In this document: positions 55,313 through 55,960 of the stretch, piece by piece
Numbering within the stretch: the stretch's first letter is position 1
Layout: the number at the start of each line of letters is the position of its first letter
Assembly (NCBI RefSeq): GCF_056746865.1
Contig: NZ_CM163382.1
Length of the DNA stretch: 64,000 nucleotides
Strand: one strand, 5' to 3'
Position numbers and translations under genes: made by a program
The notes under the pieces: generated by a model
Databases searched by the model: none
Told to the model about the DNA's origin: nothing
The model's input: the letters and a program-made list of their open reading frames with translations, nothing else

Positions 55313-55960
55313 AATGCTACATATCCTTGAAATAAATATCCTCTGGCAGCGCCGGAGACGTGAATGTGGTCACCGCAAAGGTGCCACAGGACGTCATTTG
55401 CGCTGATATAACTACTCATCGTTGACTTTTTCCCTTGGTCAGAAATGCCGTGTCGGGTCTGGTACATGCTGTATTACGGCCCTGGCAGCTCTGACGTATT
55501 AAAGAAAATACGAAAGCGAACGACCCGGAAATAATCGTTATTAAGCAAAGGAATAACTATAAGAAATCGCTCATGCATCCGGTGCTACAGGCGGATGAAA
55601 CGCCACTACAGTTACTGAGCAGTCTGAAACGCGTATTGTGTGGGCTACGCCAGTGCGGCAGGTTGCGTGGGGGAATATGTTCAGGCGATGTCAGGCTGGG
55701 GCCCTGATGGTTGACGGGGATACCGGTAATGCGGCGCTGGTTATTCTTCACCTGTTGCAGTCAGAAGAAGCCATTACGCTGACTTTCTTGAGCCGGTGTT
55801 TTGAGTTGATTGGCCAGAGCCTGCAATGGTTTGCCATCCATAATTTAACCTTCTTCTGATGTTGGAATGTGCATATCAAAATCAGGAAATGACAAGTTTA
55901 TATGCAGGCTCAGGCTGCGTTCGCAAAGCATCGCATCCGGCGATAGATGCTGTATTAAAT

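Follow-up and report, generated by a model that had tools for sequence, protein, structure and literature searches.

The 648 bp between the cvrA stop codon and the start of the leucine-rich-repeat (LRR) gene in this E. coli chromosomal segment are very probably a mosaic of dead mobile-element DNA and the native upstream region of the LRR gene. According to the ORF listing, this interval occupies positions 55313-55960 of the window, i.e., of the whole stretch of 64,000 nt that was analysed. Read on the minus strand from cvrA to the LRR gene, it consists of 49 bp of flank, ~190 bp of the left end of an IS1414-like element, ~160 bp probably of an IS66-family element in the opposite orientation and 245 bp of conserved DNA. 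The preliminary description had put the distance at ~650 bp, which agrees with the measured length, and had suggested either a decayed gene or a long regulatory leader. The former suggestion holds for ~350 of the 648 bp, which appear to be transposase stumps of the IS1414-like and IS66-family elements, but not in the sense of a host gene; the latter may apply to the 245 bp next to the LRR gene only. The interval is ordinary genome debris of an already known kind, with no new gene or system in it, and the known behaviour of insertion sequences is unchanged by the findings at this locus.

The gene order in the segment is dadA-dadX (plus strand), the LRR gene and cvrA (both minus strand), then ldcA, emtA and ycgR, and the 100%-identical RefSeq record of strain 118UI carries annotations for the same two genes on either side of the interval. 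The full interval was found in 706 of the 5426 complete E. coli genomes, at a single locus and with 83-100% identity, and its alleles differ by indels of 12, 13, 19, 29 and ~150 nt. The features discussed below are as follows.

53876..55312, minus strand: LRR gene, 478 aa, downstream of the interval (ORF listing, 100%-identical RefSeq record, Pfam)
55313..55557, minus strand: LRR-proximal segment, presumed LRR promoter and 5' UTR (from position and conservation)
55347..55405, minus strand: imperfect 59-nt hairpin, CAGCGC..GACGU..UGUGGCACC/GGUGaCCACA..ACGUC..GCGCUG (inverted repeat I2)
55558..55718, plus strand: probable fragment of an IS66-family transposase (TnpC), ~aa 265-335, frameshifted and internally deleted (tblastn, shuffles)
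55720..55911, minus strand: relic of an IS1414-like element, left end (blastn, tblastn, gapped alignment with the complete IS1414)
55761..55841, minus strand: 26-codon ORF MDGKPLQALANQLKTPAQESQRNGFF, followed by a stop; N-terminal stump of the IS1414-like transposase (ORF listing, tblastn)
55859..56089, plus strand: YmgM-like ORF, 76 aa, antisense to the cvrA 3' end (Pfam YmgM, PF23693)
55912..55960, no strand assigned: native cvrA 3' flank, 49 bp, common to K-12 (alignment with K-12)
55961..57697, minus strand: cvrA (K+/H+ antiporter), 578 aa, upstream of the interval (ORF listing, RefSeq record)

Probable remnants of two insertion sequences

IS1414 belongs to the IS256 family (McVeigh et al. 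2000, as cited in PMC12585946), and its decay by deletion has been reported as common (PMC12585946). The cvrA-proximal part of the interval was compared with a complete IS1414 (L005:2010-3329), the ends of which were set by comparing independent copies. In blastn, window positions 55917-55795 matched nt 1-127 of the element (77%, E 6e-23) and positions 55778-55720 matched nt 328-386 (71%, E 9e-6); in tblastn with the IS1414 transposase, aa 1-25 were aligned at 60% and aa 77-103 at 50% identity. The family terminal repeat is present: from 55911 downward, GAGCCTGCATATAAACTTGTCATTTCCTGATTTTGATATG can be aligned with the left inverted repeat of IS1414, beginning at the first base of the latter. 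The inverted-repeat tip GAGCCTG (55911), the 5' UTR, the RBS GAAGAAGG and the transposase ATG at 55841 have all been kept. After the ATG, codons 1 to ~24 remain with a loss of 12 nt, followed by a deletion of ~165-200 nt and then by codons ~84-103 (..VKNNQRRITG..). In the peptide alignment, MDGKPLQALANQ----LKTP of the relic stands against MDEKQLQALANELAKNLKTP of IS1414, and the frame is taken up again beyond the internal deletion with RNGFF*LQQVKNNQRRITG, opposite RDGTFEPQLVKKNQTRITG. When the interval was searched by blastn against plasmids, ~700 records matched, all of them in its cvrA-proximal quarter (query nt 24-179), and the matching plasmid elements were annotated as IS256 family or IS1414 transposase.

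The relic thus has the same terminal inverted repeat, the same layout of 5' UTR, RBS and ATG, and the same transposase N-terminus as IS1414. However, ~85% of the element has gone by internal and 3' deletions, with the astA region, the catalytic (DDE) domain and the right end all missing. No match to IS1414 nt 387-1320 was obtained by blastn within 53700-56100, and the right inverted repeat is absent from the same region; because only one end is present, the 8-9-bp target-site duplication cannot be defined. An intact ~400-aa DDE transposase (Pfam Transposase_mut) is likewise absent, and the six frames gave no Pfam match. All of this points to a relic rather than to a member capable of transposition. 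Since the relic is only ~77-82% identical to IS1414 and to the IS1414 fragment of K-12, which itself closely matches IS1414, it would come from an older or different family member. Stepwise erosion is shown by allele L008, which keeps 12 + 13 extra nt of the transposase 5' end.

Positions 55558-55718 are probably an IS66-family transposase fragment, an assignment resting on short peptide similarity. The lead for later comparisons was the plus-strand peptide LMHPVLQADETPLQLL, which we took to resemble the catalytic 'ADET' region of IS66 transposases. The IS66-like pieces ..LMHPVLQADETPLQLL.., ..YASAAG.., ..GEYVQAMSGW.. and ..LMVDG span the 'ADET' and 'DG(Y)' motifs. In tblastn with two IS66-family transposases (L013 and L014), 20 aa were matched at 70% identity (31.2 bits), and YASAAG, GEYVQAMSGW and LMVDG were recovered as weaker collinear pieces in shifted frames. 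None of 1000 dinucleotide shuffles of 55313-55719 reached 31.2 bits (best scores 17.8 +/- 1.8, maximum 28.5), and the collinear chain scored 49.2 bits versus 26.9 +/- 4.2 in shuffled sequence (0/1000). The natural in-frame allele P0036 was aligned with IS66 transposase aa 277-335 with 26 identities (36 bits, pairwise E 1e-8). For the frame-corrected peptide the sole Pfam return was DDE_Tnp_IS66 (PF03050), below threshold (E 0.16, 11.7 bits versus a cut-off of 23.1), and in a tblastn search of plasmids the top non-self matches of the peptide lay in IS66 transposase genes, at an E of only ~3.

The similarity to IS66 TnpC is collinear over aa ~268-335, including PVLQADETPLQ, YVSAAG, GEY.AM.GW and VDG(Y), but what is left is a fragment of ~55 codons with frameshifts and deletions, below the Pfam threshold. 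Outside ~55558-55718 there was no further collinear TnpC similarity. Neither the tnpA-tnpB-tnpC order nor terminal inverted repeats were seen, Pfam in the six frames matched no other ORF family, and neither a right inverted repeat nor a target-site duplication survives. When the IS66-like peptide was compared with 5.8 billion proteins, nothing but alleles of this locus in E. coli and Shigella came back, and blastn of this part against all complete E. coli genomes found only this locus, without any IS66 element matching at the DNA level. An additional tblastn match of IS66 aa 376-417 to 55463-55612 (E 0.02) was rejected, being out of order with the others and overlapping the strong match in another frame.

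The two relics abut at ~55719, where both are truncated; a deletion would therefore have removed the rest of each. In the course of events that we favour, two IS elements would have landed beside the horizontally acquired LRR gene and would then have been eroded by deletions. Neither relic can transpose, since not more than one end is left of each and no transposase is intact. Annotators could enter IS1414-like and IS66-family remnants for the interval, as is already done in part for K-12.

The locus in K-12 and other strains

In K-12 the LRR gene is absent, and a feature 'IS1414 (partial)' is annotated between dadX and cvrA (MG1655). It lies at the same chromosomal locus as the relic of the window but in the opposite orientation, K-12 L004:2689-2789 corresponding to window 55813-55911, inverted and 82% identical. 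Other IS256-family copies of E. coli match the K-12 fragment at 92-94%. A simple inversion was considered as the origin of the K-12 arrangement and rejected, since the flanks agree at 96-97% whereas the K-12 fragment, a close match to IS1414, is only 82% identical to the window relic.

K-12 still has the 3'-terminal 74 nt of the LRR ORF (window 53876-53949), from which it follows that the K-12-type locus, the junction of which was found in 3308 of the 5426 E. coli genomes, derives by deletion from an LRR-bearing locus. In the most economical scenario, a second IS1414 would have inserted into the 3' end of the LRR gene, and a microhomology-mediated deletion would then have led to the loss of the rest of this second IS1414, of the LRR gene and of the old relics. 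The K-12 fragment ends in CAGGCTCAGGCT, which matches IS1414 codons 7-10 (CAGGCTCTGGCT) and also matches the reverse complement of the inverted-repeat tip of the old relic with its flank (window 55905-55916). The K-12 junction falls within a 12-of-13-nt microhomology, CAGGCTC(T/A)GGCT.

The second IS1414 fragment supplies the start codon of YmgM in the K-12-type locus. The RBS and the first 8-10 codons of K-12 YmgM (MDDKQLQAQA) are IS1414 transposase sequence (K-12 locus L004:2689-2964); beyond them the ORF runs antisense to the 3' end of cvrA.

In an O157:H7 strain (7636, L003 2692-4000), window positions 53992-55846, i.e., the LRR gene and most of the interval, are replaced by an IS3-family element. 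The locus is thus an insertion/deletion hot spot with four IS events across strains, namely the IS66 relic, the old IS1414-like relic, the younger IS1414 of the K-12 type and the IS3-family element of O157:H7. A second IS3-family copy truncates ycgR nearby in strain 7636.

Short reading frames and the cvrA flank

The longest ORF lying fully within the interval has 73 aa. In dinucleotide shuffles of the interval the longest ORF measured 77 +/- 22 aa, and 50% of the shuffles reached 73; ORF lengths in the interval are at chance level. The earlier remark that only short, low-quality ORFs occur here was borne out by these figures. The 26-codon ORF that had been singled out on the minus strand is also present, although its start is at 55841 and had been placed one position off, at 55842. 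Its product, MDGKPLQALANQ, corresponds to the N-terminus of the IS1414 transposase (MDEKQLQALANE / MDEKQLQALANELAKNLKTPEDLSQ.. in IS1414), and the ORF is the stump of an insertion-sequence transposase and not a decayed host gene. It has 65 aa in allele L002 and 53 aa in L010/L012, and it is frameshifted in L008. Because length and frame differ in this way between alleles, the ORF is not conserved as a coding unit. A translated comparison in six frames had been proposed in the preliminary description as a check; Pfam gave no match for the individual ORFs of the interval or for all six frames and nothing relevant for the ORFs of natural alleles, whereas tblastn revealed the similarities to IS1414- and IS66-family transposases described above.

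It is extremely unlikely that the interval encodes one or more genuine small proteins, for example the 50-aa WP_001310024.1 at 55707..55859 (plus strand) or the product of the 26-codon ORF. PGAP does annotate hypothetical proteins here, the good RBS and ATG of the 26-codon ORF are kept in all alleles, and the exact 50-aa sequence occurs on at least 1000 contigs. However, the RefSeq 'hypothetical proteins' of the interval vary in strand, position and length from strain to strain, the 50-aa ORF is the transposase relic read from the opposite strand, and every relative that was found is an allele of the same locus; the chance-level lengths and the lack of Pfam matches for ORFs and six frames argue in the same direction. 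Rhodnius proteins placed in the same cluster as the 50-aa ORF have no real similarity to it and were discarded as a clustering artefact. Under the mosaic explanation as a whole, which we hold to be very probable, the short ORFs would be accidental products of transposase decay. Hypothetical proteins called in this interval would accordingly be by-products of that decay, not to be treated as genes in annotation.

On the cvrA side, window positions 55903-56100 were aligned with K-12 L004:2777-2975 at 97%. A hairpin at ~55925-55951 on the minus strand (dG -10.8 kcal/mol, z -3.0), followed by only UUU, is a weak candidate for a cvrA terminator. The YmgM-like ORF, of which the first 34 codons lie inside the interval and cross the IS1414-like inverted repeat, exceeds the Pfam gathering threshold (PF23693, 128 bits versus a cut-off of 27, E 1.7e-37); its residues 21-76 match profile positions 12-67, leaving profile positions 1-11 unmatched. 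YmgM (b4740), a small protein of 67 aa, has been validated in K-12 (VanOrsdel et al. 2018, PMC6001520). The window ORF has the 56 C-terminal residues in common with it, also antisense to the cvrA 3' end, but its N-terminus is unrelated to that of K-12 YmgM because the IS relic faces the opposite way in the window. The frame starting from the ATG at 55902, which allele L002 uses for a YmgM-like protein of 63 aa, is interrupted by the loss of 1 nt near 55919. In the identical strain, the YmgM-like ORF is annotated by PGAP as a pseudogene. PGAP also marks cvrA as 'incomplete, missing C-terminus' in three records (L002 4733-6403, L008 3265-4935 and L003 4182-5852), while its 3' end looks intact in alignment A1; where the calls are truncated, a YmgM-like ORF that overlaps the 3' end of cvrA has been annotated as well.

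The LRR gene and its upstream segment

The 478-aa product of the LRR gene matches Pfam LRR_4 and has been named 'putative type III effector protein (leucine-rich repeat protein)' by one source. Its repeats are short and of the LPxLP type, and its C-terminus is acidic, Leu-rich and repetitive; we take the repeats to resemble those of YopM/IpaH-type effectors. Nucleotide divergence of the gene between strains reaches 13%, as compared with 2-4% for the neighbouring cvrA, and the gene is frameshifted in O139:H1 (L009). A scan of 100,044 species genomes for the protein yielded one contig only and no relative outside E. coli-like DNA; an orthologous LRR upstream region from another species was also not obtained from these genomes. 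The sole contig (JAIJJM010000586.1, L015; 2088 bp), from a 'Collinsella sp.' MAG, carries the E. coli cvrA-LRR locus with 96% protein identity, and binning contamination is the most likely reason for its presence there. A literature search found no paper linking a leucine-rich-repeat gene with dadX.

The 245 bp proximal to this gene are a single-copy sequence, present in 837 of the 5426 E. coli genomes (15%) and always at this locus. Nothing similar to the segment turned up in plasmids, in phages or at other positions of the E. coli genomes; when 55313-55725 were searched by blastn against plasmids and phages, there was either no match or the same chromosomal locus mislabelled as plasmid. Six-frame Pfam searches of the segment gave no match. 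Among seven alleles, mean pairwise identity was 96.6% in the proximal segment, 92.1% in the LRR coding sequence, 94.3% and 93.4% in the two relics and 97.9% in cvrA. The proximal segment is the best-conserved part of the islet, and most of the indels among these alleles lie in the relics. Judged by position and conservation, the segment presumably comprises the promoter and 5' UTR of the LRR gene and would be a functional regulatory region, although its higher conservation could reflect the fast evolution of the LRR gene rather than constraint on the leader.

The most conspicuous structure in the segment is the 59-nt hairpin, 35-93 nt upstream of the LRR ATG. Its predicted dG of -30.8 kcal/mol compares with -16.9 +/- 2.9 in shuffles (z -4.8, 0/200), and four of its five substitutions among the seven alleles fall in unpaired positions in an alignment read by eye. 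RNAalifold on the seven alleles predicted 74 pairs with no compensatory changes and a covariation term of +0.05, in a set of alleles that are very similar to one another. Rfam 15 covariance models, run over 53500-58000 on both strands at E <= 1, gave no matches. A scan for consensus sigma-70 promoters found no sites; on the plus strand it gave two sites resembling terminators, a number not above that in shuffled sequence. A search with relaxed matrices gave weak candidates only, the best being TTCACG-18-GATATT, ending at 55335.

These observations bear on three further readings. It is a tentative and rather unlikely suggestion that the 245-bp segment with its hairpin is a dedicated cis-regulatory element, either an RNA leader or a protein-binding palindrome, and that IS relics have been repeatedly exapted as translation starts of small ORFs, of which the start codon of K-12 YmgM would be an example. 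If this were true, the element would control a horizontally acquired gene named a putative type III effector by one source. That the hairpin is the core of a small RNA gene missed by annotation, or of a cis-regulatory RNA element, is distinctly unlikely: the folding energy of the hairpin, its substitutions mostly in unpaired positions and the conservation of the proximal segment speak for it, but the stem is not directly followed by a U-tract, the element is confined to this locus and to 15% of E. coli genomes, and both the Rfam search, even at E <= 1, and the comparison of seven alleles for compensatory changes were negative.

We consider it highly unlikely that the whole 648 bp form a long regulatory leader of the LRR mRNA, with transcription starting near cvrA, for instance at the former transposase promoter or through cvrA transcription running on into the interval. 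The LRR gene does have the same orientation as the transposase start in the relic, the terminator-like hairpin behind cvrA is only weak, and the 261-nt proximal leader RNA folds somewhat better than shuffled sequence (z -2.7). Nevertheless, the distal 400 bp, consisting of IS debris, differ by deletions between strains, with one natural allele lacking ~150 bp, and in alignments read by eye the promoter of the relic has a 2-nt deletion, which leaves a 14-nt spacer, as well as a damaged -10 element. The promoter scan, the Rfam search and the covariation analysis were negative too. The reading that we prefer remains a native upstream region of 245 bp, next to the LRR gene, with transposase relics behind it.

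The minus strand has the sequence AGGATAT(T/G)TA twice, 15 nt apart, immediately before the LRR ATG (55318-55342). The second copy gives rise to an ATG-TAG start-stop pair that is peculiar to this allele, and 5 nt separate its TAG from the LRR start codon.
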